Assembly (NCBI GenBank): GCA_018693315.1
Contig: JABHLR010000002.1
Location: 2,445 to 66,444, forward strand
Direction of reading: 5' to 3'
Source of the DNA: an archaeon
GTDB lineage: Archaea; Nanobdellota; Nanobdellia; Pacearchaeales; GW2011-AR1
DNA: 64,000 nucleotides
In this document: one piece after another, positions 5,454 to 36,017 of the stretch
Layout of the letters: each line of letters begins with the position of its first letter
Numbering within the stretch: position 1 is the first letter of the stretch
Notes under the pieces: generated by a model
Databases searched by the model: none
Told to the model about the DNA's origin: nothing
What the model saw: the letters and a program-made list of their open reading frames with translations, nothing else
Position numbers and translations under genes: made by a program

Positions 5454-6017
5454 ATGAAAGAGGTTGGTAATGTTCTTCGGATACTGAAAGAGACGAAGCG
5501 ACTTGTTGAGGAGGATAATTCGCATGCGTTGAAGGCTTTGTCGAATCAGACGATTCATTCTGCTATGGTTGCGCAGGATGGGGATAATATTGTTGTTGCG
5601 GTTTTGGTTTATTCTTTGGGGAAGGTTTTGGAGCGTGGGCATTATCGTGAGCTTGAGGGTTGGGCTGAGTTTTATGATGTTGTGAATAAGAATTTGAATT
5701 TGGCGATTAAGGCTCTTGAAAAAAATAATGTTGATAATGTGCGTGTTTATTTGGGGAGAATTAGAAATTCTTTGAATAAGTTTGATGGATATTTGGGTGA
5801 GTATATTAAGGATGTTTTTAAGAAGGCCGAGGTTAATAAGGCGTTTAAGATGTATGAGCATGGTTTGTCGACGGAGGCTACGGCGAATTTGTTGGGAGTG
5901 AGTCTTTGGGATTTGTCTTCGTATATTGGGCAGTCGCATATTGGTGATGCTCATGTTGCGATTACGATGCCAGTTGCTGAGAGGGTGAAAATTGCGGAGG
6001 GGATTTTTGAAGAATGA
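5454..6017 (+). CDS. Hypothetical helical protein with C-terminal HTH-like segment
   Basis: GLS.EATANLLGVS.W; ATGA-coupled to the downstream PIN-like gene. Confidence 0.6.
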   Translation: MKEVGNVLRILKETKRLVEEDNSHALKALSNQTIHSAMVAQDGDNIVVAVLVYSLGKVLERGHYRELEGWAEFYDVVNKNLNLAIKALEKNNVDNVRVYLGRIRNSLNKFDGYLGEYIKDVFKKAEVNKAFKMYEHGLSTEATANLLGVSLWDLSSYIGQSHIGDAHVAITMPVAERVKIAEGIFEE

Positions 6018-6688
6018 AATACCTAATTTTTGATGCGGGGCCGATAATTTCTTTGACGATGAATGGGATGTTGCCGATTATTGAGAAGTTGAAAAGCGTT
6101 TTCCTGGGTGAGTTTATTTTGACGCCGCAGGTTAAGAAAGAGGTTGTTGATAAGCCGATGAAGATTAAGAAATTTAAGTTGGAGGCTGTGAGGGTTCGGG
6201 ATATGATTGAGCGCGGTGTGTTTAAGATGTCGTCTGATGTTATTCCTGATGATAGGTTGAATAATGAGACGAAGCGGATTTTGAAAACTGTGAATGGGGT
6301 TTTGAGGACGACGGCGACTGGGGAGAAGATGAAGATTATTCAGGATGGTGAGGCTGCGTGTATGGCGTTTGCGAAATTGTGTAAGTGTGATAATGTGATT
6401 GTGATTGATGAGAGGACTGCGAGGATGTTGGTTGAGGCGCCGCATGATTTGGAGAAGTTGATGGAGAAGAAATTGCATACGCCGTTGGATGCTGAGTTGA
6501 GTTTGTTGGATGGGTTTAAGGGGATTAAGTTTATTCGGTCGGCTGAGCTTTTGTTTGTTGCTTTTAAGAAGGGTTTGATTCCGATTAAGAAGAGTGCGGA
6601 TTTGTTGGATGGGTTGCTTTATGGTGTGAAGTTTAAGGGTTGTGCGATTAGTTCTGGTGAGATTGAAGAAATGAAAAAACTAATTTAA
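6014..6688 (+). CDS. PIN-like domain protein
   Basis: LIFDAGPIISL, V..EVV, GEAAC, VIDERTAR. Confidence 0.7.
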   Translation: MKYLIFDAGPIISLTMNGMLPIIEKLKSVFLGEFILTPQVKKEVVDKPMKIKKFKLEAVRVRDMIERGVFKMSSDVIPDDRLNNETKRILKTVNGVLRTTATGEKMKIIQDGEAACMAFAKLCKCDNVIVIDERTARMLVEAPHDLEKLMEKKLHTPLDAELSLLDGFKGIKFIRSAELLFVAFKKGLIPIKKSADLLDGLLYGVKFKGCAISSGEIEEMKKLI

Positions 6689-6793
6689 GTGTCAATTTCT
6701 TGATAAAATTCTCCTTATGTATAAACATACACTGCGTCGAATTTTATGCTTCGAAATTGCCTGCTTAAATTAATTTTTTGAAGTTGGTTTAAA

Positions 6794-6921
6794 TTAAATG
6801 GGCGCAGGAGGAATTTTTTATTCGCAATTTGCATTTCGTAAAATATTAATTAATTAATTTTACTCAAAGCGAATTGCTCACCCCCACCGAGGTATGCGTT
6901 AAATGGGCGCAGGAGGAATTT
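6794..6921 (-). repeat. 23-bp duplication of tRNA-Trp 3' end enclosing a family A hairpin
   Basis: ttaaatgggcgcaggaggaattt at 6794-6816 and 6899-6921. Confidence 0.9.
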
Positions 6922-6974
6922 AACCCCCACCTCCCGGGCTGGAGCCGGGTAGACTAACATTATCCGATGCACCC
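6904..6974 (-). tRNA. tRNA-Trp(CCA), no intron
   Basis: Cloverleaf GGGUGCA/UGCGCCC-A; anticodon arm CCCGG-CUCCAGC-CCGGG; T arm GGGGG-UUAAAUU-CCUCC. Confidence 0.88.
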
Positions 6975-7061
6975 AATAAAGAAGATAGAGTCTTTCCGTT
7001 TTTAAAGTTAAGTACTTTCTTTTCCCAATACTTTTATAAATAAGTTTATCTTAACTTTAGC

Positions 7062-7547
7062 ATGGTGAAAAAGGTGGTGAAGAAGACTGTCACTGAAACT
7101 ATCAATGATGATGGTTCCAGGAAGACTGTTGTTAAGGAGCATGCGCCGAAGGAAGTTGTGAAGAAGAAGCCTGCTGTGAAAAAAAAGAAGATGACGGCGA
7201 GGGAGCGGGAAGAGTTATTGATTGAGAATTTTGTTGGGCTTCAGCATGCTATGACGAATATGTCGATTAAGTTTGGTTCTTTGTCTGATAATATTAGTAA
7301 GTTGTTGCAGGTTTTTGAGGAGTCGGCGAAGAATTTTGTTTCTGGTGGAAAGAGTGATGATAGGGATATGTTGAAGAAGATTGATTCATTGTTGAACCAA
7401 AATAAGACGATTGCTAAGGGTTTGGTTTTGATGGAGGGGAAGTTGAGGGGGAGATCTGAGGAGCCGAAGGCGATACCACCTAGGGTGGAAATGAAGCCTA
7501 GGACGGAAGCACCTCAAATGAGACCCAGGCCACTTCCAAGCGCATGA
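7062..7547 (+). CDS. Hypothetical coiled-coil protein
   Basis: ORF with upstream TATA (ttttataaat); heptad-like core. Confidence 0.65.
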   Translation: MVKKVVKKTVTETINDDGSRKTVVKEHAPKEVVKKKPAVKKKKMTAREREELLIENFVGLQHAMTNMSIKFGSLSDNISKLLQVFEESAKNFVSGGKSDDRDMLKKIDSLLNQNKTIAKGLVLMEGKLRGRSEEPKAIPPRVEMKPRTEAPQMRPRPLPSA

Positions 7548-8221
7548 GTTCTGTAGATGTTTCTATGATAGCCGCTGATCCATTTATTAGTAAATTTGTT
7601 TTTGCGATTATCCAAAATATTCGTGCCAAGAATTTTGATTATGATGACCGGCATGTGATTCACGCTGACATGGTTCCGAGAGCTTCTGAGAGGGTCATAC
7701 ATGCTTCGCTTGGGGAAAAGATCACTAGAAGGGTTCCTGCTATGGCTCCTGCTGTTCGGAAGAGAGATATGAGTGCTTTGGTCGCTCCGATTGCTAGGCC
7801 GAGGATGAGAGCGCCGATTCAGCAAGTTGCTCCCCCTGTTCAGGCTCAGACGATGGCTCCACCTATTCAGCAAGCTGCCCCAATTGTTCCGCAGGGTATG
7901 CCGCCTGGGTTGACTCAGGATTATGGGAAGATTACTCCTTTGTTGAATGATCCTTCGATTTCTACGATTGAGTGTCAGGGTCCAGGAAAGCCGGTGATGA
8001 TTATTCGGGCTGGGCAGAAGCAGGTGACGAAGATTGTTTTGAGCGGGAAAGATATTAAGGAAGTTTTGGATAAGGTTTCGGATGCTGCGCATATTCCTTT
8101 GCTTGAGGGTGTGTTTCGTGCGGCTGTTGATAATTTTTCTATTAATGCTGTGATTTCTGAGATGATTGGTTCGCGGTTTGTGATTAAGAAGCAGACGGCT
8201 TATGCAATGCTGGAGCGGTAG
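7544..8221 (+). CDS. Protein with Pro/Gln-rich linker and a domain like the N-terminus of VirB11/FlaI-type secretion ATPases (no ATPase domain)
   Basis: YGKITPLLNDPSISTIEC.GPGKPV; no Walker A. Confidence 0.6.
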   Translation: MSSVDVSMIAADPFISKFVFAIIQNIRAKNFDYDDRHVIHADMVPRASERVIHASLGEKITRRVPAMAPAVRKRDMSALVAPIARPRMRAPIQQVAPPVQAQTMAPPIQQAAPIVPQGMPPGLTQDYGKITPLLNDPSISTIECQGPGKPVMIIRAGQKQVTKIVLSGKDIKEVLDKVSDAAHIPLLEGVFRAAVDNFSINAVISEMIGSRFVIKKQTAYAMLER

Positions 8222-17056: not shown

Positions 17057-17177
17057 GCCGCAGTAGCTCAGTTTTGATAGAGCGCGTCATTGGTAAAGTA
17101 AGTTCGAAGAACTTTCATGTTTTGAATTTAAAAATCCAAAAATGACGAGGTCACGGGTTTGATCCCCGTCTGTGGCT
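17057..17177 (+). tRNA. tRNA-Thr(GGU) with 46-nt intron at 37/38 (17096-17141)
   Basis: GCCGCAG/CUGUGGC acceptor; CGUCA/UGACG anticodon stem; BHB helix UUGG/CCAA with AAA bulge. Confidence 0.9.
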
Positions 17178-24995: not shown

Positions 24996-25156
24996 GCTCC
25001 TATAGTCTAGAGGCCAAGGATGCCACCCTCTCAAGAGGTGGGAAACCCTCGTCGATGAGACAACGGTTTCATGTTCGCTTGAACAACCACTAAAATCTCT
25101 CACGAGATTTTGTTGGAGAACGGTGGTGACCCGGGTTCGAATCCCGGTGGGAGCGT
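24996..25156 (+). tRNA. tRNA-Glu(CUC) with 87-nt intron at 37/38 (25034-25120)
   Basis: GCUCCUA/UGGGAGC acceptor; CCACC/GGUGG stem; BHB helix CUCU/GGAG with AAC bulge; canonical GGUUCGAAUCC. Confidence 0.9.
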
Positions 25157-25285
25157 TATACCCTCTTGACCAATCGCGGGGACATATTTTTTGTTTAGAA
25201 ATAACTAAATGAAAACTAAAAAACAAGAATTTTTGAAAAATATGTCACCAGTAGGTGGTCGACAATTATTATATAGTCTATTTTT

Positions 25286-26488
25286 GTGGACACTGACACC
25301 ATGAAAATTGATCCTTACAACCACGAAGGGTCGCTGACCCGTTGGAAAGATAAGGTGCGGGAATTGGGAGGAATTCCTGACATCTCGAGACAGAACTCGG
25401 AGATAATTTTGAAATACATGAGCGACATGGAACTCGGAATTAACACATCCCTATCGAGTAAAAAAGGAGCGAGAAGTTTTGTTCGAATCAACACAATAAG
25501 ACAAAGACTTACATTCCTAGCCAAGAAATTCAAAGAAATTCTTGATGTTGATGATATGATTCTCCTAACTGAGCAACAAATTTGTTCATTCTTTGTTGAC
25601 ATGCGTAAGGGCGTCATAAAACGGCAGGACGGGCGCAGATATAAGGCGACACGAGACTTTGTTAAGATATTTAAGGCATTCTGGCACTGGTGGCAAAAAG
25701 TCGCACGTAAGGCGGGACAAACGGTTGAAGACATTACAGTTTACCTAGACTCCTCGGGAGAGAAACCCGAATGGGTATATCTCAACGAAGAACAAATCAG
25801 AATCTTCTGTGATAATTGCAATTTAAAATATAAAGTTCTTACTATGTTTTTGTTTGATACAGGCATTAGGGCTCCGACCGAATTACTGAACATGAAAGTT
25901 TCTGATTTGTCTAGAGATTGCAAGGAACTAAATATTCGAGATGAAGTTTCGAAAACATTTGGTAGGAGAATTAAGTTAATGCTTTGCTCAGAATTGATTA
26001 AGAGATACATCAAAGAGAATAACTTAAGTCAAGACGATTATATATTCAAATTCAGCCCCTATGTTGCCAATCGTTACCTGAAAAGGTTAGCTAAAAAATT
26101 ATTTGGCGATGAAAAGAGTTTGGCTGGTCAGAATTATTCTGATTTGACGATGTATGATTTTAGGCATTGTAGTTGTTGTTATTGGCTTGTGAGATATAAA
26201 TCTGAGTCGGCTCTTAAATTTAGATTTGGTTGGAAGAAATCAGATAAGATTCATTATTATTCTGAAATGCTTGGAATGAGAGATACGATTAGTGAAGAAG
26301 ATTTATTGGTCGATGTCACAAAAACGGAATTAGAACAAAGATTAGTCAAATCAGAAAATAGAAGTGAGCTTCTAGAGGCTCAGGTCGAAGCCATGAAGAG
26401 ACAGATGGCTGCGATAAAAGTTGATGTGAATAGGGTTCATTGGGGTATTAAGGAGGCAATAAGATTGAAACTTCTGAAGACTTGTTAA
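25286..26488 (+). CDS. Tyrosine recombinase/integrase
   Basis: DTGIR..E, SKT, YDFRH (Y in place of H in HxxR), FGW, HYY. Confidence 0.88.
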   Translation: MDTDTMKIDPYNHEGSLTRWKDKVRELGGIPDISRQNSEIILKYMSDMELGINTSLSSKKGARSFVRINTIRQRLTFLAKKFKEILDVDDMILLTEQQICSFFVDMRKGVIKRQDGRRYKATRDFVKIFKAFWHWWQKVARKAGQTVEDITVYLDSSGEKPEWVYLNEEQIRIFCDNCNLKYKVLTMFLFDTGIRAPTELLNMKVSDLSRDCKELNIRDEVSKTFGRRIKLMLCSELIKRYIKENNLSQDDYIFKFSPYVANRYLKRLAKKLFGDEKSLAGQNYSDLTMYDFRHCSCCYWLVRYKSESALKFRFGWKKSDKIHYYSEMLGMRDTISEEDLLVDVTKTELEQRLVKSENRSELLEAQVEAMKRQMAAIKVDVNRVHWGIKEAIRLKLLKTC

Positions 26489-27357
26489 TTCCATTCTTAT
26501 TATTGGCGATAGCTTTCTCTTTTATTCTTGCCGAACCGATTCATAAGATTGAGAAAGAAATTCAAGAATTTCCAAGTAAATTAGTATCTTTTTTTACTAA
26601 TACGATTTTTATTATTTTCATAATTATTTTGTTTTCAGTTGGATTAATTTTTCTAATATTCTTCAAATATAAATCACATAGAGAACACAAAAGGATTGAA
26701 ATAGAGAAAAAAGAAATTAGAAAATCATTCAGCCCTAAGGCTAGAAAAATTTACCTTAAGGAGAATGAAGATAAAGAAATTAATGAAAAAGAATCAGAAG
26801 AAGATGTTGAGGATGAAGAATCATACGAACCTCTACCAATAGGAACCTATCAAAAAAGTGTGAATATAAAGGTTGATTCAGGTAAAAGATATTTTCACAA
26901 GAAGGACATAAGCAAAGATGAAGTTGAATATCTTCTGGATGAAGGTTATCAAATTAAAAAATATAAAAACCTCTTAAATAGTAGAATGGAAAAATTTCTT
27001 TTACAGCCGAGACATAATGAAAGTTTTACTCATTTATTTTTAACCCATAATATTTCCGAATTTCTAGAAAAAGAAGGTATTGAGACGGAATTATACACAA
27101 CTAAAAAACCAGATATTGTTTTTGAAATTCGTGGCAAGAGGTTTGCGATTGAAATAGAGACAGGTTCTATTTTTTCTAAGATTAGTAGGATGAAAGAAAA
27201 ATTAAAAGTTCTAGAGAATTATGACAAGTGGTTTTTTGTTGTGACTGATAGAAATAAGGTGAAGAAGTACAAAAGATATGGAGATGCAGTAGATAAAAGA
27301 TATGTAAAACCTAGGCTAGATAAGCTGATAAAACTCGCTAAAAAAGCCCAAAAATAG
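26482..27357 (+). CDS. Membrane-anchored protein with PD-(D/E)XK nuclease-like C-terminal domain
   Basis: N-terminal TM segments; KPDIVF...AIEIETG. Confidence 0.6.
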   Translation: MLIPFLLLAIAFSFILAEPIHKIEKEIQEFPSKLVSFFTNTIFIIFIIILFSVGLIFLIFFKYKSHREHKRIEIEKKEIRKSFSPKARKIYLKENEDKEINEKESEEDVEDEESYEPLPIGTYQKSVNIKVDSGKRYFHKKDISKDEVEYLLDEGYQIKKYKNLLNSRMEKFLLQPRHNESFTHLFLTHNISEFLEKEGIETELYTTKKPDIVFEIRGKRFAIEIETGSIFSKISRMKEKLKVLENYDKWFFVVTDRNKVKKYKRYGDAVDKRYVKPRLDKLIKLAKKAQK

Positions 27358-27488
27358 GACTCTGGATTTTGGGTGTGTAAATGGGGTCCTATCGTCGATA
27401 AATATTAGTATAAATTGGCAAAGAGTCAGTCGGCATAATATGTATGTGTAGGGGTAGTGACTAGGAGGTAAATTATTCTTATTTCTAG

Positions 27489-28067
27489 TTAATTCTCAAA
27501 CGCTATCAGATAAAAATAATGTCGATGCTTAAATGGGAAAAAATCTGTTCTCTGCTTAAATTTCTTGTAGATTATTTTCTTATCTAGCTTCTTCAACGTG
27601 TCCTTTATATCTAAATCATAAAACTTTTTGTTTTTATCAAGATTTATAATTTTCCGATCCAATGTAATTATTCCCAAACCACCCTTTTTTATAACCCTTT
27701 TAAATTCCGATAAAACTTTTAGCACATCAGTATAGAATAATGAATTTACGCAATAAACAACATCAAAGGAATTATCTTTAAATGGCATTTTCCCCATATC
27801 TCCCTTAGTAAACTTTATTTTTGGGTAATCCTTTCTTGCCCTTTTGATAAATTTCATATCATAGTCCAACCCCTCTGCGACAATGTTTTTCTGGTTCAAT
27901 AAATTCGTATGTTCTCCCTGTGCACAACCCACATCAAGAACCTTAACGGACCTCTTCTTAAAGTACTCATCTATTAACACGACAGTCAACTCCACATCAT
28001 TTTTTCTATTTGTCCAATGAGATTTTCCCTTATGGATAATCTTTATTGTTTTCTTATCAATTCCCAT
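27489..28067 (-). CDS. Class I SAM-dependent methyltransferase
   Basis: VLDVGCAQG, GDM..MPF.DNSFD, E..RV.K.GG. Confidence 0.9.
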   Translation of the reverse strand: MGIDKKTIKIIHKGKSHWTNRKNDVELTVVLIDEYFKKRSVKVLDVGCAQGEHTNLLNQKNIVAEGLDYDMKFIKRARKDYPKIKFTKGDMGKMPFKDNSFDVVYCVNSLFYTDVLKVLSEFKRVIKKGGLGIITLDRKIINLDKNKKFYDLDIKDTLKKLDKKIIYKKFKQRTDFFPFKHRHYFYLIAFEN

Positions 28068-28077
28068 ATTAAAATAA

Positions 28078-28821
28078 TTACAGCTCCTCTCTCCAAAAGA
28101 CGACCCTCTTCTCAATAAAAACAACAGCAAAATACATAATTAATCCAATCAATACAACATATAATAAGCCCGCGAATACCATTGCTGAATCCAACAAAGA
28201 AGCTGAATAGCTAATTTGATACCCAAGTCCGACACTAGAACTAATAAACTCCGCTACAATTGCCCCTACCGAAGCGAGAGCGATACCTATCTTTAACCCA
28301 GTAAACAAATAAGGTAAAGAATATGGGATTTGTACATTCCTTAATATCTCTGTTTTCGTACTACCCGCAGCTTTCATTATATTAATAAAACCTTTATTCA
28401 CAGACTCGATCCCTTTATTCAAATTAATAAAAATCGGAAAAAAGCAAACCAAACTAACAGTAATTAATTTTGGCAAAATTCCATGGCCAAACCAAATTAA
28501 TAGAAGAGGTATTAGTGCAATTTTTGGTACAATTTGAACCCCGACAAGCATTGGGTGTATAATTTCCTTAACGTATCTAGAATATACTCCCAAGATAGCC
28601 ACAATAAAAGCAAAAATTACGGCGACGAAAAAACCACTTAATATCTCTGACAAAGTCCAAAATGCATGCTCAGTTAAAATAGAAAAATTTTGTATAAATA
28701 CTGTAATTATTTCTATTGGTCCTGGAAGCAAAAAAGACGGAATATTAAGAAAACCTACCACAAATTCCCAAATAACGAGTAGAAGCAATATCGTTCCAAG
28801 TTGATAAATTAGCTTTTTCAA
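28078..28821 (-). CDS. ABC permease (SsuC/TauC/NitT family)
   Basis: LP.P, P.IA..PLL..WFG.G, EAA-like loop, GAIVAEF...GLG. Confidence 0.92.
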   Translation of the reverse strand: MKKLIYQLGTILLLLVIWEFVVGFLNIPSFLLPGPIEIITVFIQNFSILTEHAFWTLSEILSGFFVAVIFAFIVAILGVYSRYVKEIIHPMLVGVQIVPKIALIPLLLIWFGHGILPKLITVSLVCFFPIFINLNKGIESVNKGFINIMKAAGSTKTEILRNVQIPYSLPYLFTGLKIGIALASVGAIVAEFISSSVGLGYQISYSASLLDSAMVFAGLLYVVLIGLIMYFAVVFIEKRVVFWREEL

Positions 28822-30464
28822 CTTAACACCTCTTGAATCTCATTAAGAATCTTATTATATTTTTTTAATGATTTTATTTTTTTAGTCCTTGGTCGAGGGA
28901 AGGGGACATCATAAACTTTCTTTACAATTGCAGGGCTTCCTTTTAAAATAAATATTCTATCCGACAACAAAATAGCTTCATCTATATTATGGGTAACCAT
29001 AACAATCGTAATCAAGTGCTTTTTGCACAAATTCATAATCAACTCATTCATCTTGTATCTGGTTATATAATCCAAAGCTCCAAAGGGCTCATCCAGAAAA
29101 ACAATATGTGGCCTAGTTATTAAAGCTCTTGCAATAGCAACCCTTTGTTTCATTCCACCAGAAAGCTGATGGGGATAATGATTTTCAAAGCCAGTTAGCC
29201 CAACCTCCTCGATCATTTCATCAACATTGACATCATGATTCAATATCTCCGCAAAAAAGACCACATTCTCCCTCAAAGTCTTCCATGGCAACAAATTCGC
29301 AGATTGCGTAACAAAACTAAATTTTTTCTGCAATTCTTTTGTCAATGCCTTACCCTCGTAATCTACCTTCCCCTCGTAATTCTCATCTAAGCCACTCAGA
29401 ATATTTAAGAATGTAGACTTCCCACATCCCGATTCTCCAAGAATCGTTACAAATTCCCCTTCATTTATGCTAAAATTAACATCCTTAAGAATTTTTTGGG
29501 GTTTTTGATTCAAACTAAAACTCTTAAAAACTCTTTCTGCAGATATTGTTTTTGGAATCTCTTTAGACTTTAGTCCATTGACAAATTTGTTAGTAAAAAA
29601 CTCTCCAATATCAACATCCCCTTCCAATAGATTAGCAGTAGTTAAAATATCCTTAAGTCGTATCCAATCATGCTTACTCTGCACACCATTGCTCGCATTT
29701 TCAGACAAAGGCAATCTTTCATCAAGCTTCAATCTACTTTCAAACATCTTTTTTTGATAATCCTTCTCATCCGCCAATTGAGGATTTTGTTTCATCATTA
29801 TATCAAAAGACTCTTTTGGATACTTTCTCTCATAACTCATCCCCTTTAGAATTGCATTGGTAAACCCCTGGACAATCTTAGGATTCTTTTCCGCATAATC
29901 AGAATTAGCAACCAAACAAAGACCATAAGACTTTAAGCCGTAATCATAAAAAAGAATATTACTTAGTTTTTTATTTTTCTCTCCTGCCATTAAGAATGGG
30001 TATGTCACAAAGTGTTTTACGCCCTTTTTTAAAAATTTATTTCCCAAACCATCTACTGGCATCTCAAAAATATTATCTCTATTAATATTATTTTTTAGTA
30101 GAAAAGCAGAATACATTTGATAAGAATTACTATTTAAAATCACACCAACCTTTTCACCCTCAAGGTTTTTTGGATTTGATATTTTTTTCCAAGAGACTAT
30201 CCCCGAAGGATTTACCTTACCAACAACAGCTATAACTTTAATTGGCAAACCCTTGCTCCTTGCTATCATAGCTGTTTCTGCACTCACAATCCCCATAGCA
30301 TACTCTCCAGACCCTACCTGTTCACTGGTAATCTTCGAGCCTAAATTCTGCACAATTGAAACATCCAAGCCCTCTTCTTGAAAAAACTTCTTTTCTTTAG
30401 CAACATAGGAAAAAACCCATGAACCACCATGAAACCAGCTAATAGGAAAACTTAGCTTTTCCAT
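28818..30464 (-). CDS. NMT1/THI5-like substrate-binding domain fused to ABC ATPase
   Basis: N-terminal part paralogous to the upstream SBP (SWFHGG); C-terminal GESGCGKST, LSGGMKQR, LDEPF. Confidence 0.85.
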   Translation of the reverse strand: MEKLSFPISWFHGGSWVFSYVAKEKKFFQEEGLDVSIVQNLGSKITSEQVGSGEYAMGIVSAETAMIARSKGLPIKVIAVVGKVNPSGIVSWKKISNPKNLEGEKVGVILNSNSYQMYSAFLLKNNINRDNIFEMPVDGLGNKFLKKGVKHFVTYPFLMAGEKNKKLSNILFYDYGLKSYGLCLVANSDYAEKNPKIVQGFTNAILKGMSYERKYPKESFDIMMKQNPQLADEKDYQKKMFESRLKLDERLPLSENASNGVQSKHDWIRLKDILTTANLLEGDVDIGEFFTNKFVNGLKSKEIPKTISAERVFKSFSLNQKPQKILKDVNFSINEGEFVTILGESGCGKSTFLNILSGLDENYEGKVDYEGKALTKELQKKFSFVTQSANLLPWKTLRENVVFFAEILNHDVNVDEMIEEVGLTGFENHYPHQLSGGMKQRVAIARALITRPHIVFLDEPFGALDYITRYKMNELIMNLCKKHLITIVMVTHNIDEAILLSDRIFILKGSPAIVKKVYDVPFPRPRTKKIKSLKKYNKILNEIQEVLS

Positions 30465-30465
30465 G

Positions 30466-31482
30466 TTATTCACTCCTCGTAACAAATTCATTCGTAAAAA
30501 ATTCTTCTAAGTTAACATCAGAATCCAAGAAACCCAGATCATCCATAATATCCTCAGTATTCTGCCATGTTTCTAAATCTTGTAGCCCATCTGTTGGGTC
30601 TGATCCCCCAAATAGCTTATCATTAAACTCATTCCTCATATAAAATAATTTTTCTTCATATGGAGCATTAAGTTCTGGATTCTCCTCTAGCATTATCCTT
30701 AATGCTTCCTCTGGATTTTCTTGCTCATATTTAAAACCCTTTAAAATCGCATTAACGACTCTTTGCACAATCTCTGGATTCTCCTCTAGATAATCATCAT
30801 TAACAACAATACCATGACTATACATATTTAATCCATGATCATAATAAACTAAAGTATTCGTCTCAACTCCCTTCAAATCAGCAATTGACTTTGTAACAAA
30901 GGGTGATAACGCATGACAATCAACCGCTCCAGCAATAAATTCTTGCCCAGCACCAGAAATTGGAATCTCCTCAATCTTTGATAAATCTATATCATTCATC
31001 TTGGCAAACATTAAAAATTGTTGATAAGTGTTACTTGTACGCGTCACTCCAATCTTCTTTCCCTCAAGGTTTTTTGGATCACTCAGATTCACATCTGTAT
31101 GACATGTTAATCCAGCATGTGAAACCTTGTCAATAATAGCGACAACAGTTAAAGGAACTCCTTTGCTCTTAGCCATTAAAGCTACATCTGCAGAAACTAT
31201 ACCAATAGGAGATTGTCCAGAGCCAATTAAAGAACTCGTAATAGTAGACCCCTTATTTTCATGAAGAGTTACTGACAATCCTTCATCGGCAAAATAACCA
31301 TTATAATCTGCTACATACGCATATCCCCAAAAACCACCATGAAACCAACTTAATTCAAAATCTATTTCATTTAAGCCTCCAGTAGATTTTTCATTCGAGA
31401 AAAAGATAAAGCCCAATACTAATACCAACACAACGACGACGACTAAGAAAGACCACTTTTTCAAACCATTACCCTTTTTCAT
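30466..31482 (-). CDS. ABC substrate-binding protein, NMT1/THI5 family
   Basis: N-terminal TM anchor; GYF.DEGL.V, L.GKKIG, FTNEF. Confidence 0.88.
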   Translation of the reverse strand: MKKGNGLKKWSFLVVVVVLVLVLGFIFFSNEKSTGGLNEIDFELSWFHGGFWGYAYVADYNGYFADEGLSVTLHENKGSTITSSLIGSGQSPIGIVSADVALMAKSKGVPLTVVAIIDKVSHAGLTCHTDVNLSDPKNLEGKKIGVTRTSNTYQQFLMFAKMNDIDLSKIEEIPISGAGQEFIAGAVDCHALSPFVTKSIADLKGVETNTLVYYDHGLNMYSHGIVVNDDYLEENPEIVQRVVNAILKGFKYEQENPEEALRIMLEENPELNAPYEEKLFYMRNEFNDKLFGGSDPTDGLQDLETWQNTEDIMDDLGFLDSDVNLEEFFTNEFVTRSE

Positions 31483-31756
31483 ATCAGAGAGAGGTATTAT
31501 TCTTTTATAAAGTTTTTCAAATCTTCTAATCACCCTAAACTCTCAGAAAGATAAGTACACTTGTGCTCCTCAATCAACTGCACAATTTTCTCGTCAGCAA
31601 TCAACTCTCCAAACTCATTCGACAACTTTCCGCCACCCATATACTCAACCTCGACAATCCTTAAAAACTCTAACCACCAACGACAATTAAACTAAACAAA
31701 GTTCATAAACAAAAAATTTAGTTGTCCCCTCCCGATGCCAAAAAGGTCAGGTCGGC

Positions 31757-31865
31757 GGCGGGAGCGTTTCTGTGATTTGAACGGTTCAAATTGAGCGATT
31801 CGCTTTGAGGAAAACAATTTTAAGTATATTTTTCCGAGATGCAAATTGCGAATAGGCGGGAGCGT
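31757..31865 (+). repeat. 11-bp direct repeat resembling the tRNA-Glu 3' end, enclosing a family A hairpin
   Basis: ggcgggagcgt at 31757-31767 and 31855-31865; internal tgagcgattcgctttgag...atgcaaattgcgaata matches 6820-6880 (- strand). Confidence 0.85.
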
Positions 31866-31964
31866 GAAATGAAAATTTTCTAGAGGCAGGAGAAGTCATG
31901 TCGTCCCCGTTACTTCCTGACAATCAATACAAAGACATAAAAAGCAAATTTCATCAGTAAAGTT

Positions 31965-32927
31965 ATGGTAGCTAAACCAAAAGCGCCGAAGATCAATGAT
32001 TTAATCTTTAAGGAACTCATTAAAAGAGGCTACTCTCTAGAAGGAAATACGCGAATCTGGAACATCGCCGACTCAAAACTCTGGTACCTAACACCTGACC
32101 AAGCACAGTCATACCTAGATTTAGAAGACGAAGAGAAATATAAGGAAGAGGTAACAAACAAAGAGCTAAAACTTATTGATGAAAATATAGACGAAATTTT
32201 AAAAGAGGCAGGAGGAGGCCCATTAAATATCATAGACTTAGGATGCGGAGACGGAAAGAAGGTGGTAAAATTCATCGAAAAACTAAAAGGAAAAGTAAAG
32301 TTGAGATATTGCCCAATCGACATAAGCGGCTACATGGTAAGCAAAGCGATCGAAAGAATAAAGAAACTAAAAGCAGGAGAGATCGTAGAATTTCAATGGA
32401 ACATATCAGATTTTGAAAATATAGAAAACATAACAGAATTATTGAGACAAGGAGAATTCAAGAAACATCTAATTTTATTATTAGGTAACACGCTCGGGAA
32501 CTTTGAAATCAACGAGCTATTATACGAAATCAGAAGTTCGATGAAGGGAAACGATTTACTTGTCATCGGCAACGGGATAGATAACGGAAAGGTTGATACT
32601 CGTGCGGAATCTTATGAGAAAAATGAAACAGTAGATAGATTCTTAATAAAAATCCCATTCCAACTTGGACTTAAGCCAAGCGAAATAGAAATAGGAACGA
32701 GATTTAAGAATTCCAGAATAGAATTGTATTATACGATAAAGAAAGACAAAGTAATCAAATTCCAAGAAAAGGAAATTCAATTTCAAAAAGGAGATCAAAT
32801 TATAGTAGCAGTTGGATACAAATATCCAAAAGAAGAATTTATGAGCTATTTGAATATTCATTTCGATGATGTCAGTGCGAAAACCTCTGAAGATGGAACA
32901 CAGATTCTAGCCCTCTGCAAAAAATAA
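31965..32927 (+). CDS. EgtD-like (histidine N-alpha) methyltransferase family protein
   Basis: IIDLGCGDG.K, Y.PIDIS, LLGNTLGNF, SRIE. Confidence 0.75.
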   Translation: MVAKPKAPKINDLIFKELIKRGYSLEGNTRIWNIADSKLWYLTPDQAQSYLDLEDEEKYKEEVTNKELKLIDENIDEILKEAGGGPLNIIDLGCGDGKKVVKFIEKLKGKVKLRYCPIDISGYMVSKAIERIKKLKAGEIVEFQWNISDFENIENITELLRQGEFKKHLILLLGNTLGNFEINELLYEIRSSMKGNDLLVIGNGIDNGKVDTRAESYEKNETVDRFLIKIPFQLGLKPSEIEIGTRFKNSRIELYYTIKKDKVIKFQEKEIQFQKGDQIIVAVGYKYPKEEFMSYLNIHFDDVSAKTSEDGTQILALCKK

Positions 32928-32993
32928 CTCAAAGATTTAATTCATATTTCTCAACCCCAATAACTTTTTATATCTATTTTAATCAGTATTACT

Positions 32994-33136
32994 GATCCTG
33001 TAGCTCAGTCTGATCAGAGCGCTAGTCTTATATGGCTACAGTTCCTCCGGGAATTGTAAAAGCTTTCGCTTGAAAATCTTTAGGGATTTTCGCTTGAGAA
33101 AGCTAGAGGTCCCGGGTTTAAATCCCGGCAGGATCA
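32994..33136 (+). tRNA. tRNA-Ile(UAU) with 68-nt intron at 37/38 (33033-33100)
   Basis: GAUCCUG/CAGGAUC-A acceptor; CUAGU-CU-UAU-A|A-GCUAG; BHB helix CUUA/UGAG with AAA bulge. Confidence 0.88.
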
Positions 33137-33247
33137 TCAGATCCGGATTTAAACCCTGTGTTTATTTTCCCGGCCGAGCGTTTAGGTCTGAACAAATGTA
33201 AAAATATTTGCAGACCTGGGCGCGAGTTGGATCATCAGATCCGGATT
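33131..33247 (+). repeat. 19-bp duplication of tRNA-Ile 3' end/trailer enclosing a long hairpin
   Basis: ggatcatcagatccggatt at 33131-33149 and 33229-33247; internal gcgtttaggtctg/cagacctgggcgc stem. Confidence 0.9.
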
Positions 33248-33262
33248 AAAGGATAAATTAAA

Positions 33263-33823
33263 ATGATAATAGGAATAGCTGGAAGAATCGCGGCAGGGAA
33301 AGAAACACTAACAAAGTTCTTGAGAGACAAAGGAGTTAATTATTTTGAGACTCGAAGAATCTTATCTGAGACTTTGGAGGAGATGGGACTAGAGGCAAGC
33401 AGGTCTAATATGCAAGATCTTGGAGACAGATGGAGAGGAGAGGGGGGCGCAGGCGCTCTGATGGAAAAGATTCTAGAGAAGATAAACTATAAAGATGAAG
33501 ACTGGATTATTGACAGTCTTAGAAACGGGGGGGAGGCTGAATTTTTGAGGGAAAAATTAGGAAAAGATTTTGTGTTAATATCTGTGGATGCCCCAAGGGA
33601 AATCAGATTCAAAAGAATTGTCGATAGAGGGAAAAAAAGCGACATGTTAAATTGGGATAATTTTCTGAAAGTAGACGAAAGAGATGATTTCGACAAAGAA
33701 AATCCGATGGGACAACAAACGGGAAGGCTTATAGGGATGTCAGACCACGTCATTATGAACGACGGCATATTAGAAGACGCAATGTCGGAAATAAAAAAAG
33801 CTTGGGAGGAGATTAATAAATAA
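33263..33823 (+). CDS. P-loop nucleotide kinase (dephospho-CoA kinase-like)
   Basis: IGIAGRIAAGK, IDSLRN..E, R..RI..RG, D..I.NDG. Confidence 0.8.
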   Translation: MIIGIAGRIAAGKETLTKFLRDKGVNYFETRRILSETLEEMGLEASRSNMQDLGDRWRGEGGAGALMEKILEKINYKDEDWIIDSLRNGGEAEFLREKLGKDFVLISVDAPREIRFKRIVDRGKKSDMLNWDNFLKVDERDDFDKENPMGQQTGRLIGMSDHVIMNDGILEDAMSEIKKAWEEINK

Positions 33824-33824
33824 A

Positions 33825-35006
33825 ATGTTACTAGGATTAGTAGGAAAACCATCATGCGGAAAATCAACATTCTTCAAGGCAGCGACGCTCTCGGACGTCT
33901 TAATAGCCTCATATCCATTCGCAACAATCGAGCCGAACCATGGAATTGGATATGTGAGAGTCGACGCTTTATGCAAAGAACTCAAAACAAAATGTAATCC
34001 GAGAACAGGATTCTGCACAGGCGAAACAAGATTTGTCCCAGTCGAGCTAATGGATGTAGCAGGTTTAGTCGAAGGCGCCTCTGAGGGTAAAGGACTCGGT
34101 AACAAATTTCTAGACTCACTAAGACAAGCCGACATGTTCATCCACATCGTAGACGCATCAGGCACAACAGACGCCGAAGGAAAAGAGGGTTCAGGCGATC
34201 CAGTCCAAGATGTAAAAATGCTAGAGAACGAACTCAACAAATGGTATCAAGCAATATTCAAAAAAACCTGGGACAAACTTTCTAGAACAATACAAACAAC
34301 AAAACAAGATCTCTCAGTATCCTTAGCAAAACAATTTTCAGGACTAGGAGTTTCAGAAGACGACATCAAAGACGTCCTAATAAAATTAAAGCTCGATCCA
34401 CTCAAGCCAACATCATGGTCCGAAACAGATCTAGCAAATTTTACAGAAACACTAAGGCACCTAACAAAACCAATGCTAATCGCCGCAAATAAAATCGACA
34501 AGCCTGGCGCAAAAGAAAATTTAGAAAGACTAAAACAAGAATTCCCAAACATGCAAATAATCCCATGCTCAGCCGACGCCGAACTATCCCTAAGGCAAGC
34601 TAAAGAACACGGATTAATCGAATACATTCAAGGCGAATCATCATTCAAAATCAACGAAGACAAAGCAAACGAAAAACAAAAAGCAGCCCTAGAGTCAATC
34701 CAAAAAAACGTCCTAGACGAATTCGGCTCAACAGGAGTTCAAGAAGTCCTAGACAAATCAGTTTTCGATCTTCTAAACTATATCGCAATTTTCCCAGCAG
34801 GAAATAAACTAGCAGACTCCAAAGGCAACATCCTACCAGATTGCTTTCTACTTCCAGGCGGCTCAACAGCACTAGACTTCGCATATTCACTCCATACAGA
34901 CATAGGTGACAAATTCGTAAAAGCAATCGACGTCAGAACAAAACAACCGGTCGGAAAAGATCACGCCCTAAAGCATAGGGACGGAATAGAAATCATGACT
35001 TCATAA
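33825..35006 (+). CDS. ychF: Redox-regulated ATPase YchF (archaeal OBG family)
   Basis: GKPS.GKST, YPFATIEPN, DVAGLV.GA..GKGLGN.FL, NKID, TGS domain. Confidence 0.93.
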   Translation: MLLGLVGKPSCGKSTFFKAATLSDVLIASYPFATIEPNHGIGYVRVDALCKELKTKCNPRTGFCTGETRFVPVELMDVAGLVEGASEGKGLGNKFLDSLRQADMFIHIVDASGTTDAEGKEGSGDPVQDVKMLENELNKWYQAIFKKTWDKLSRTIQTTKQDLSVSLAKQFSGLGVSEDDIKDVLIKLKLDPLKPTSWSETDLANFTETLRHLTKPMLIAANKIDKPGAKENLERLKQEFPNMQIIPCSADAELSLRQAKEHGLIEYIQGESSFKINEDKANEKQKAALESIQKNVLDEFGSTGVQEVLDKSVFDLLNYIAIFPAGNKLADSKGNILPDCFLLPGGSTALDFAYSLHTDIGDKFVKAIDVRTKQPVGKDHALKHRDGIEIMTS

Positions 35007-35404
35007 TCGCAATTAAATATCACCAAGCCCCAGACATCCAAACAATCGCCGAAGAGGTAGTAAGAAAGCTAGACTGGAGCCACGTCCTCCTCGAACACGT
35101 TTCATTTCTTAGAAGCACAGGATCAAGGGCTAGACGAACAATCGCAAGATGCCACGCCCTCGGCAAAGCAATGCAAATCGGCATGGGAAGAAAAAAAGGA
35201 TTCTACCTAATCGAAGTCATCTCAGAAAAATTCGACAGACTCTCAGCAGAAGAACAACTAAAAGTAATCATCCACGAACTAATGCACATCCCAAAATCTT
35301 TCGGCGGCGGCTTCATCCACCACGACAAAGTCCACGACGCATCAGTCGACCACGTCTACAACCACTACTGCAATCTAAAAAAAGAAGAGACAGAATGGTT
35401 CTAA
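35006..35404 (+). CDS. Putative metallopeptidase (HExxH) with apparent ATC start
   Basis: Open frame from 35006: AIKY..APD..RS.GS...TIARCH..EVISE.F...IIHELMHIP..FGGG. Confidence 0.75.
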   Translation: MAIKYHQAPDIQTIAEEVVRKLDWSHVLLEHVSFLRSTGSRARRTIARCHALGKAMQIGMGRKKGFYLIEVISEKFDRLSAEEQLKVIIHELMHIPKSFGGGFIHHDKVHDASVDHVYNHYCNLKKEETEWF

Positions 35405-35703
35405 AACAAATCACCTACTACATCAACAACAAGCCTCACAAGATAAAAGTAAAACTCTGCGACACTCCATTAAAAAAAACAACAGGCCTAATGTTCCGAA
35501 GCCAAAGCCCGCCACTCCTATTCGTCTTCAATAAAAATAAAACTCTAGCAATTCACTCACTCTTTTGCAAACCATTTAGAGCAATCTGGCTCGACGACAA
35601 AATGCACGCAACAAAAATTATCGACGTGAAAAACTGGAAACTCAATCTGTCAGGCAAAGGAAAGTACTTGCTCGAAATACCGACGAGGATTACTAATAAA
35701 TGA
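35395..35703 (+). CDS. DUF192 family protein
   Basis: GLMFR, LFVF, IHS.F, IWLD, Y.LEIP. Confidence 0.85.
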   Translation: MVLKQITYYINNKPHKIKVKLCDTPLKKTTGLMFRSQSPPLLFVFNKNKTLAIHSLFCKPFRAIWLDDKMHATKIIDVKNWKLNLSGKGKYLLEIPTRITNK

Positions 35704-35798
35704 CAAATTCACCTCGACAATTGACCAAAAGGTTTAAATAGAAAATCGAATTAGAAACATTAGAACTTGCAAAAGAGGGAAAAAGGAGGTTAAAAAAA

Positions 35799-35975
35799 AT
35801 GGGAAAAATAATCGCTAAAAATGTCGTTGAACGAAAATCTGGATTTCTATACTATGTAGACGGAAAGGGAAACGTTTGCGAGGCTAAGATGGCTCGAGGT
35901 GGAAAGAAGAAAAAGAAAGCCGCTAAGAAACCAGCAAAGAAGAAAGCAGCCGCTAAGAAGAAAAAGAAGAAGTAA
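35799..35975 (+). CDS. Small basic chromatin-like protein (CC1-like core plus Lys/Ala tail), 58 aa
   Basis: MGKIIAKNVVERKSGFLYYVDGKGNVCEAKMARGGKKKKKAAKKPAKKKAAAKKKKKK; SD aggaggt; absent from the ORF track. Confidence 0.75.
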   Translation: MGKIIAKNVVERKSGFLYYVDGKGNVCEAKMARGGKKKKKAAKKPAKKKAAAKKKKKK

Positions 35976-36017
35976 TTCTTCACAACTATTATTAATTTTT
36001 TAATTTATCATATTCAA

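Follow-up and report, generated by a model that had tools for sequence, protein, structure and literature searches.

Several described systems act on short palindromic DNA or target tRNA genes. REP sequences occur in hundreds of copies in extragenic space, and the cognate Y1 gene (RAYT) is typically flanked by the repeats. The attC sites of integrons act as folded single strands and carry extrahelical bases. The IS200/IS605 elements show an orientation bias relative to replication, and free-standing homing endonuclease genes of the phage T4 SegB type are found in tRNA clusters. The single-strand transposition of IS608 (IS200/IS605) involves the recognition of imperfect hairpins in one DNA strand, as described in excerpts of PMC3201880. 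Displaced tRNA fragments have been located beside integrated elements of 9-23 kb (excerpts of PMC9897764), and tRNA disruption in one archaeon has been tied to a 1.8-kb recombinase-bearing element (excerpts of PMC3293823).

The hairpin described here, designated family A, was found in a window of 64,000 nucleotides, the whole stretch of DNA analysed, from an archaeon of the order Pacearchaeales. With the REP/REPIN-RAYT systems it shares short, gene-less, imperfect palindromes present many times per genome, compensatory pairing, conserved bases at the foot and a lineage-specific distribution. However, family A has tens of copies and not hundreds, occupies the loops of tRNA genes and not extragenic space, and is accompanied by a duplication of the gene end. 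The Y1 transposase (PF01797) has no match in the source genome (G000), is present in 8 of the 41 genomes of the genus, and never lies beside the hairpin (0 of 6 Y1 loci, E < 0.01). Within the excerpts that cover IS200/IS605, the likeness consists of hairpins in one strand, cleavage at a set distance from the foot and the lack of a fixed target duplication. On the other hand, the family A units contain one hairpin and not two distinct ends, have no TnpA or TnpB beside them, lose a few target bases, and are free of a constant target tetranucleotide, with left flanks that vary by tRNA. Integron attC sites are also about 60 nt long, fold as a single strand, keep conserved unpaired bases while the sequence is free, and are strand-specific. 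Family A differs in the lack of an integron integrase, attI or cassette ORFs, and its G.A, U.U and C.A positions are symmetric and not extrahelical. The analogy with attC or REP sites that an earlier note on this DNA had drawn is not supported as stated: the defining features tested are absent. Searches of the full-text literature outside subscription-only papers gave no description of such hairpin elements at tRNA genes, and no described element family was found to match family A.

An exact pattern of the two arms with a free loop matches the window at 31798-31854 (+) and 6819-6874 (-), against an expectation of 0.00 from 100 dinucleotide shuffles. The hairpins announced earlier at 31791-31854 (+) and about 6820-6880 (-) are thus present, the second one extending over 6819-6881, and they differ by one base in each arm. 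The features of the two loci, and the remaining tRNA genes of the window, are the following:

6794 to 6816, minus strand: second copy of the Trp direct repeat, the displaced tRNA-Trp 3' fragment, 2 nt past the 3' end of the hairpin
6819 to 6881, minus strand: family A hairpin 3' of tRNA-Trp (pattern match; covariance model 85 bits)
6881 to 6898, minus strand: Trp filler (6889-6898), then 8 nt copied from the T-stem 5' strand (6881-6888), directly adjoining the hairpin
6899 to 6921, minus strand: first copy of the Trp direct repeat, a 23-nt exact repeat inside and just past the intact tRNA-Trp
6904 to 6974, minus strand: intact tRNA-Trp(CCA), the target gene (Rfam tRNA model 52.7 bits; ARAGORN 6903-6975)
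17057 to 17177, 24996 to 25155 and 32994 to 33136: tRNA genes with long introns (Rfam tRNA model)
31659 to 31685, plus strand: promoter-like box, remnant of a former tRNA-Glu gene
31757 to 31767, plus strand: first copy of the Glu direct repeat, the acceptor 3' end left by a former tRNA-Glu(TTC) gene that has lost its body
31768 to 31791, plus strand: Glu filler, with an inverted copy of the tRNA-Glu T-loop (31774-31782) and a direct 9-nt T-loop copy (31783-31791) that abuts the hairpin
31791 to 31854, plus strand: family A hairpin at the decayed tRNA-Glu site (pattern match; covariance model 79.1 bits)
31855 to 31865, plus strand: second copy of the Glu direct repeat, the displaced tRNA-Glu 3' fragment, directly 3' of the hairpin

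The orientation relative to tRNA sense, said to be alike at both copies, is indeed the same. The Trp copy lies 22 nt 3' of the minus-strand tRNA-Trp, and the 31791 copy is flanked by two plus-strand tRNA-Glu acceptor 3' ends, at a place where relatives carry a plus-strand tRNA-Glu. The first copy of the Trp repeat comprises the 3' part of the T-loop, the 3' strands of the T-stem and of the acceptor, and 5 nt of flank. When the flanks of the Trp unit are matched to the gene, the 7-nt left match stops at tRNA position 51 and the right flank starts again at position 55; in the 31791 unit three target bases are likewise absent between the left and right flanks. The fragment at 31757-31767 matches the 3' end of the genome's intact tRNA-Glu(TTC) gene (C3:131-203), and the filler plan of 31768-31791 is also found in a relative, G022. 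The covariance-model match of the 31791 copy spans model positions 1-63, and its RNA fold is a rod of -14.3 kcal/mol. A scan of the whole window with Rfam places only four tRNAs above threshold and no family that fits the hairpin (ARAGORN calls just the tRNA-Trp), and a relaxed scan around the Trp copy yields matches at chance level, e.g. a group I intron at 17 bits against 50.

The profile built from the two window copies detects seven more, at E values from 2e-10 to 2e-7, in the source genome, which comprises 674 kb in 8 contigs and is 87% complete. A covariance model made from the nine copies recovers exactly those nine. The search of this genome and 60 relatives with the model, run with stricter filters above 40 genomes and on many incomplete genomes, gave 222 matches in 31 of the 61 genomes, the source genome being one of them. 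Of the 36 relatives in the same genus, 30 carry from 1 to 22 copies each and six have none; no covariance-model match occurs among the 24 genomes searched from eight other families of the order, and viral contigs hold no match to the two-arm pattern. The identity of the arms is 0.76-0.81 within a genome and 0.77 between genomes. Copies within a genome are consequently no closer than those of different genomes and give no sign of a recent burst, nor was a new insertion seen among the copies. Many units nevertheless hold perfect repeats of 18-52 nt.

The association with the ends of tRNA genes, put forward in the earlier note from two loci, extends to the further copies. ARAGORN places a tRNA within 135 nt of 35 of the 41 copies, with 22 anticodons represented, while the share of the genome within that distance of a tRNA is estimated at about 2% (for about 40 tRNAs). 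Four of the six copies away from a called tRNA stand at a contig edge with a tRNA 3' fragment adjoining. Read along the hairpin strand, the usual unit consists of an intact tRNA gene, a spacer of 19-47 nt, the hairpin and a displaced 3' part of the tRNA. This displaced part starts 0-10 nt past the 3' end of the hairpin, repeats 8-52 nt of the gene, often together with its flank, and reaches a variable point beyond the gene end.

Both flanks of the hairpin were compared with the adjacent intact tRNA in 25 units. A copy of the target, 5-14 nt long, abuts the 5' end of the hairpin in 22 of them, and its length is 7 nt in 13 units, 6 nt in four, 5 nt in two, 8 nt in one and 14 nt in two. By the borders of the model, a gap of 2-14 nt in the target separates the right flank from the left, most commonly one of 4 nt (nine cases), and the model's first column, read by eye, continues the target in 11 cases. 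The 4-nt gap together with this first column means that about 3 nt are replaced, typically the first three bases of the T-loop. The insertion points fall mostly in the T-loop, where they gather at one position; others lie at the T-stem/acceptor junction, in the anticodon loop (L010), in the variable region (L030) or at the junction of the D and anticodon arms (L032, C5:122442). Between the intact gene and the 7-nt copy, the spacer frequently includes the uninterrupted target in inverted form, extending across the insertion point, and beside the 7-nt copy 10 of the 25 units show a junction palindrome with a loop of 1-3 nt. Opening of a hairpin end ('P nucleotides') was considered as the origin of these palindromes and rejected, as the inverted piece copies the uninterrupted target and not a hairpin-bearing end. 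Also rejected was a MITE of the DDE type: a target duplication of fixed length is lacking, the repeats being mostly 8-52 nt, and the hairpin sits inside the second copy.

Departures from the usual unit are of several kinds. At some tRNA 5' ends the layout is mirrored with the hairpin inverted (L021, L024, L025, L033, L051), and the rule that the 5' end of the hairpin points toward the intact gene is not absolute (exceptions L018:1501, C8, L019, L130). Copies also occur upstream of tRNAs, antisense to them and within dead fragments. Tandem arrays of repeat, filler and hairpin exist; L131, for example, has two perfect 107-nt units. At L144 the hairpin stands at the end of a protein-coding gene whose last ~25 nt are repeated behind it, on the same plan, and L145 holds a copy with no recognisable tRNA nearby. 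In dispensable targets the insertion is simple and brings no new duplication, as in an old tRNA-Ser (C5:122442), in L019 and in the upstream tRNA-Trp copy of the genome G025 (L051). At C5:62496-62634 a hairpin splits an older tRNA-Ser and an intact tRNA-Ser is placed within its loop.

Comparison of the two window loci with relatives indicates which sites are filled. Orthologs of the gene beside tRNA-Trp (window 6014-6688) occur in 39 of 41 genomes, and ARAGORN calls a tRNA-Trp in 22 of the 30 orthologous loci fetched. The family A hairpin is found at tRNA-Trp only in the source genome and in G024, G025 and G021. At most of the other loci the tRNA-Trp is on the same strand as the neighbouring gene and runs straight into the promoter box of the next gene, so these sites are read as empty. 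In G024 the hairpin occupies the same T-loop position. In G025 an inverted hairpin is placed in an upstream tRNA-Trp copy that keeps its promoter, with a second promoter and an intact gene behind, while in the source genome the promoter, tRNA-Trp, hairpin and fragment are inverted as a whole unit relative to the relatives. The gene beside the 31791 copy (31965-32927) encodes a methyltransferase (Pfam), and a tRNA-Glu lies just upstream of its ortholog in 13 of 23 relatives, in either orientation. This site is empty in G031. In G022 the tRNA-Glu is followed by two family A hairpins and another hairpin, and in the source genome there are a promoter box, two acceptor fragments and the hairpin. 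A box like that at 31659-31685 precedes the plus-strand tRNA-Glu in both G031 and G022. The presence of filled and empty alleles at the same loci supports the conclusion that family A behaves as inserted DNA.

Inverted units such as that of tRNA-Trp may have a parallel, by analogy, in the chromosome inversions of Thermococcales, for which excerpts of PMC5495485 propose catalysis by an integrase of a mobile-element family.

The minimum-energy fold of all nine copies in the source genome is one continuous rod. Its foot is closed by a Y-R pair, above which stand a tandem G.A and a helix of 6 bp. A C.A mismatch comes next, then one G-C and one C-G pair, a U.U mismatch and two Y-R pairs; the second tandem G.A leads into an A/T-rich helix that ends in a variable A/T loop. 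In the MAFFT alignment of the nine copies, which was not fitted to the model, 94.7% of the cells are paired and 8 of the 17 pairs change on both sides. For 42 copies from 31 genomes the values rise to 97.1% of the cells, with compensatory changes at 16 of 17 pairs (104 cells); this alignment was fitted to the covariance model and so favours the model's own fold, and the nine-copy alignment agrees with it in direction. The values observed for the 42 copies are attained in none of 500 shuffles, and 28-60% of the cells stay paired once the partners are shifted by 1-3 columns. These compensatory changes bear out the earlier suggestion that selection acts on a folded single strand. The AAAA/TTTT step beside the loop is constant in sequence and shows no covariation.

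The fold as first drawn stood in one half only. Its inner stem, which is common to the rod, covaries, and the compensatory change noticed there (G-C against U-A, alignment columns 20/49) was seen again in further copies. Its outer stems attcgc/gcgaat and tttg/caaa, which had been taken as conserved, have no compensated pair: in the nine copies, none of the 10 pairs changes on both sides, 83% of the cells are paired, and two copies break two of the four tttg/caaa pairs. The conserved 'asymmetric bulges' of that drawing become, in the rod, symmetric non-Watson-Crick pairs (two tandem G.A, one U.U and one C.A), which are nearly invariant among the 42 copies: 41-42 of 42 at both tandem G.A sites, 42 of 42 for U.U and 39 of 42 for C.A. 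Tandem G.A pairs are also known from the K-turn, where they adjoin a 3-nt bulge and a canonical stem. A K-turn or box C/D-like site for L7Ae was dropped because both tandem G.A are flanked by regular pairs on both strands, with no 3-nt bulge.

As for the strand that folds, G.U outnumbers A.C by 32 to 11 among the variable pairs, so the evidence leans toward the strand carrying the G.A pairs, although the conserved C.A, which on the opposite strand is a G.T pair, runs counter to it. Folding of single sequences gives z-scores from -1.2 to -4.2 and both strands fold, hence it separates neither the two strands nor DNA from RNA. Between copies at the same tRNA species in different genomes, 61 differences are compensated, 17 are one-sided and 22 break a pair (one locus enters the count twice); since their descent from a single insertion is not established, this comparison is excluded as evidence of selection in place.

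The hairpin strand also has a polarity on the chromosome. The GC skew of the source genome is extreme, about +/-0.35, and constant along contigs. All 10 copies of this genome have the G.A strand on the C-rich strand, including the C8 copy that is inverted relative to its tRNA, and so do all 11 copies of G025, four of which are inverted relative to the tRNA. In G026 the count is 11 of 19, or 8 of 12 where |GC skew| is at least 0.2, and among other copies it is 23 of 33, or 9 of 10 at |skew| > 0.2. Strongly skewed places pooled give 37 of 42. The polarity is not absolute: 4 of the 12 strongly skewed places of G026 break it. The two window copies are on opposite strands, at opposite sides of a skew switch at about 25-36 kb. 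The tRNA genes of the source genome are distributed as 23 on the C-rich and 14 on the G-rich strand, and duplicated 3' ends are found at 11 and 2 of them, respectively.

An enzyme that accompanies the hairpins was sought in several ways. The source genome has no reverse transcriptase (PF00078) match. With PF00589 it has two tyrosine recombinases, one Xer-like and one 407-aa integrase beside tRNA-Asp on C7, neither of them near a hairpin. The window integrase (25286-26488), directly after tRNA-Glu(CTC), is a paralog of the C7 integrase with 56% identity. When the 520 ORFs lying up to 900 nt from a hairpin (66 loci) were clustered, no shared family emerged beyond synteny and four HNH-like ORFs, and the hairpin arrays have no ORFs between the hairpins. 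The proposal that the hairpin is a recognition site of a recombinase or transposase thus received no backing, as neither was found with the copies.

Family A is probably a genus-specific DNA of about 63 nt, an imperfect palindrome without genes, that constitutes a small non-autonomous mobile element whose fold is recognised in trans. The hairpin would fold as single-stranded DNA, and this would be the structure seen by a putative trans-acting enzyme for copying and insertion. Insertion would be polar relative to the strand asymmetry linked to replication. A hit in a single-copy tRNA gene would presumably be lethal. In the survivors, break repair would rebuild the gene end from an intact chromosome copy, and rejoining with templated filler, at a fixed few bases 5' of the hairpin, would leave a working gene and a displaced fragment. 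Such a repair step presupposes an intact template, e.g. polyploidy or a sister chromosome. The reading of the units as repair scars is drawn from the duplication with its fixed 7-nt left border, its variable right border and the templated filler.

The layout of the units resembles the integration of tyrosine-integrase elements into tRNA genes, in which (excerpts of the literature on such integration) an intact tRNA and an insert are followed by a displaced partial 3' end as a direct repeat. Repeats of those elements start in the T-loop or anticodon loop, and the repeat from the tRNA loop to the 3' end, which the excerpts of PMC9897764 present as the classic integrase signature, is found in family A. 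The hairpin and displaced tRNA 3' end could then be a remnant or miniature of such an element, with the repeats as attL and attR. The genus does have a multi-copy integrase family (26 of 40 relatives; two members in the source genome, one of them in the window), and the 31791 copy stands at the far edge of a low-GC stretch that starts at the tRNA-Glu(CTC)/integrase 25286-26488. This origin is nevertheless very doubtful. One hairpin family occurs at 22 anticodons with repeats specific to each tRNA, which a carried attP could not produce, and 10 of 12 integrase loci are at Asp, Glu or Tyr tRNAs with no family A hairpin within 1.5 kb of any of the 12; ten hairpin-bearing genomes have no integrase match. 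Unlike integrase islands, the units have just ~100 nt between the repeats and no integrase, the hairpin lies inside the displaced copy, a few target nucleotides are lost, the filler contains inverted copies of the target, and the layout can be mirrored at tRNA 5' ends. The narrower proposal that the 31791 copy is the attR of the 6.6-kb low-GC stretch from tRNA-Glu(CTC)/integrase was rejected as a general explanation, given that a conserved tRNA-Glu promoter box immediately precedes the fragments and that the other integrase loci hold no hairpin. The hairpins could alternatively stem from the repair of breaks: free-standing nucleases of the homing type would cut tRNA genes, and the hairpin would be copied from another locus as templated filler. 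Like the SegB type, family A has tRNA targets and an old gene piece stranded beside a rebuilt gene. HNH-like ORFs occur at tRNA genes in 13 of 41 genomes, overlapping or preceding them (tRNA adjoining in 13 of 15 loci, hairpin in four of the 15), nearby sequence served as template for the filler beside hairpins, which includes the intact target in inverted copies, and the T-loop insertions concentrate at one position. The nuclease assignment relies on a motif read by eye; for the long form Pfam gives an E of 0.006, short of its cut-off, and for the short form it has no match. Moreover, the hairpin units are gene-less, and nuclease-like ORFs were not found in most hairpin-bearing genomes nor in the source genome, which has nine hairpins and is 87% complete. 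Precise 5' and 3' ends, strand polarity and selection for pairing would not be expected of filler either, and repair after nuclease cutting is an improbable source of the hairpins.

An element that serves the host, either as a bidirectional terminator or processing signal behind tRNAs or as a site for a host protein on RNA or replicating single-stranded DNA, could account for the fold itself. Pairing is kept at 97% though the arms are only ~78% identical, the non-Watson-Crick positions are near-invariant and the AAAA/TTTT step is conserved in sequence, the loop is flanked by an A-run and a T-run, most copies are in the 3' trailer of a same-strand tRNA, and the strict polarity in two genomes resembles polar motifs linked to replication. 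The distribution speaks against it. Most orthologous tRNA-Trp sites and several tRNA-Glu sites of the relatives work without the hairpin, as do the 6 of 36 genomes of the genus that lack any copy, and copies are also upstream of or antisense to tRNAs, in dead fragments and in tandem arrays. A role in cis leaves the displaced gene fragments unexplained and no Rfam family fits, so that a host function appears unlikely. Intron transposition is reportedly the subject of work by Fujishima et al. in 2010, and a non-canonical tRNA intron, spliced from RNA by the archaeal endonuclease, has some appeal here: three of the four window tRNAs have long introns that share a 9-nt motif with the 5' arm of the hairpin, and in an otherwise full-length tRNA-Ser-like gene (C5:122442) a copy separates the D arm from the anticodon arm. 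Removal of the hairpin restores no tRNA, however, as 2-14 target nucleotides are absent in 22 of 25 units and most hosts are 3' fragments, so the exons do not rebuild the gene. The base of the rod has symmetric 2x2 G.A loops and 1x1 mismatches in place of two 3-nt bulges 4 bp apart (BHB), and an intact intron-less gene of the same anticodon adjoins the Trp copy and normally the remaining copies as well. Splicing is therefore an extremely improbable explanation.

The non-autonomous element favoured above may belong to a wider group. Another hairpin family (behind C2:20848 and C7:7235) and a hairpin at 33166-33222 of the window follow the same unit plan, and the foot Y-G-A-R ... Y-G-A-R is common to these two and family A. 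It is conceivable, as a tentative and in all somewhat unlikely extension, that the three form one undescribed superfamily of strand-polar single-stranded DNA elements. No known transposase, integrase or reverse transcriptase would take part in their movement. They would insert at the replication fork, into the hairpin loops of essential genes, and fixation would occur only by way of a fold-back, templated break repair in which the gene end is duplicated. If so, they would represent a new lifestyle for selfish DNA within the single-copy tRNA genes of minimal genomes, and could drive the turnover, inversion and relocation of tRNA genes in DPANN archaea and perhaps in CPR bacteria.

For family A itself, the mobile-element reading, if true, would mean that a selfish element lives mainly in the single-copy tRNA genes of a 0.7-Mb genome and persists since each hit is mended into a working gene plus a scar. 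It would also explain the stranded fragments, tandem arrays of tRNA ends, inverted units and relocated tRNA genes across the genus. Fragments and hairpins beside tRNAs in DPANN genomes would then have to be annotated neither as introns nor as split genes. The conserved rod with two tandem G.A, the fixed 7-nt junction and the strand polarity offer a handle for the search of the enzyme.

The contigs of four marine metagenome runs were also compared with the window over 6000-7600. None of them shows a joint or an empty-site allele at the Trp locus; the identical filled allele was seen in three of the four runs, a result that concerns its presence only.

The family A hairpin, an element of about 63 nt that lies mostly at tRNA genes, also occurs at the 3' terminus of a protein-coding gene in one of the relatives, and is therefore not limited to tRNA genes. 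This locus and the other features considered here are the following:

Locus L144 (genome G026, C12:37503-37570): family A hairpin where a protein-coding gene ends (3' end)
Window 32994-33250: long-intron tRNA, then its own T arm copied in inverted orientation, then a hairpin that does not belong to family A
C4:28970-29250, in the genome of the window: tRNA-Met(CAT) with an unusual T-loop, behind which a 69-nt unit is repeated in tandem
Window 24996-26488: intron-bearing tRNA-Glu(CTC), followed directly by an integrase-like ORF of 400 aa
Window 25.2-31.5 kb: low-GC stretch (GC 0.30-0.35)

At L144, the last ~25 nt of the protein-coding gene are repeated behind the hairpin, and the filler holds a copy of the target in inverted orientation. 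The unit at 32994-33250 has the same plan as family A with a different hairpin family: its hairpin (at about 33166-33222) carries the Y-G-A-R foot, the base sequence also present in family A, and the unit contains a 19-nt direct repeat formed by the tRNA end and its flank. At the tRNA-Met(CAT) locus the 69-nt tandem repeats leave the tRNA 3' end in three copies, and the locus has no family A hairpin.

A 9-nt motif, TTCGCTTGA, is common to two of the window's tRNA introns, those at 24996-25155 and 32994-33136; it is present twice in the latter and is similar to the hairpin 5' arm. The intron at 17057-17177 has only a looser match to it. The integrase-like ORF behind tRNA-Glu(CTC) is 56% identical to a protein on contig C7 of the same genome that matches PF00589, and the ORF itself has no Pfam match at E < 0.01. 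The 3' flank of this tRNA-Glu(CTC) is also that of tRNA-Glu(TTC) on contig C3 (131-203).

Other ORFs are found at tRNA genes of the relatives. In G004 (locus L043), an HNH-like ORF of 157 aa overlaps the 5' end of tRNA-Trp, and an anticodon-loop fragment of the old tRNA-Trp gene is stranded upstream. Other relatives (loci L108-L111) have a shorter HNH-like ORF located 5' of tRNA-Gly in the Arg-Gly-Leu tRNA cluster. The ORFs at L043 and L108-L111 have the appearance of cassettes for free-standing homing nucleases, located at tRNA genes of archaea.

The tRNA-Trp unit of the window (6790-7030) is inverted as a whole, with promoter, gene, hairpin and fragment, relative to most relatives. The tRNA-Glu beside the methyltransferase gene is likewise found in both orientations among relatives. 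The low-GC stretch contains ABC-transporter genes encoding an NMT1/THI5-like binding protein, a permease and an ATPase. The GC skew of the + strand changes from about +0.5 to about -0.5 across 25-36 kb. Possible readings of the region 25200-36000 are a boundary of replication, an inversion and an island.
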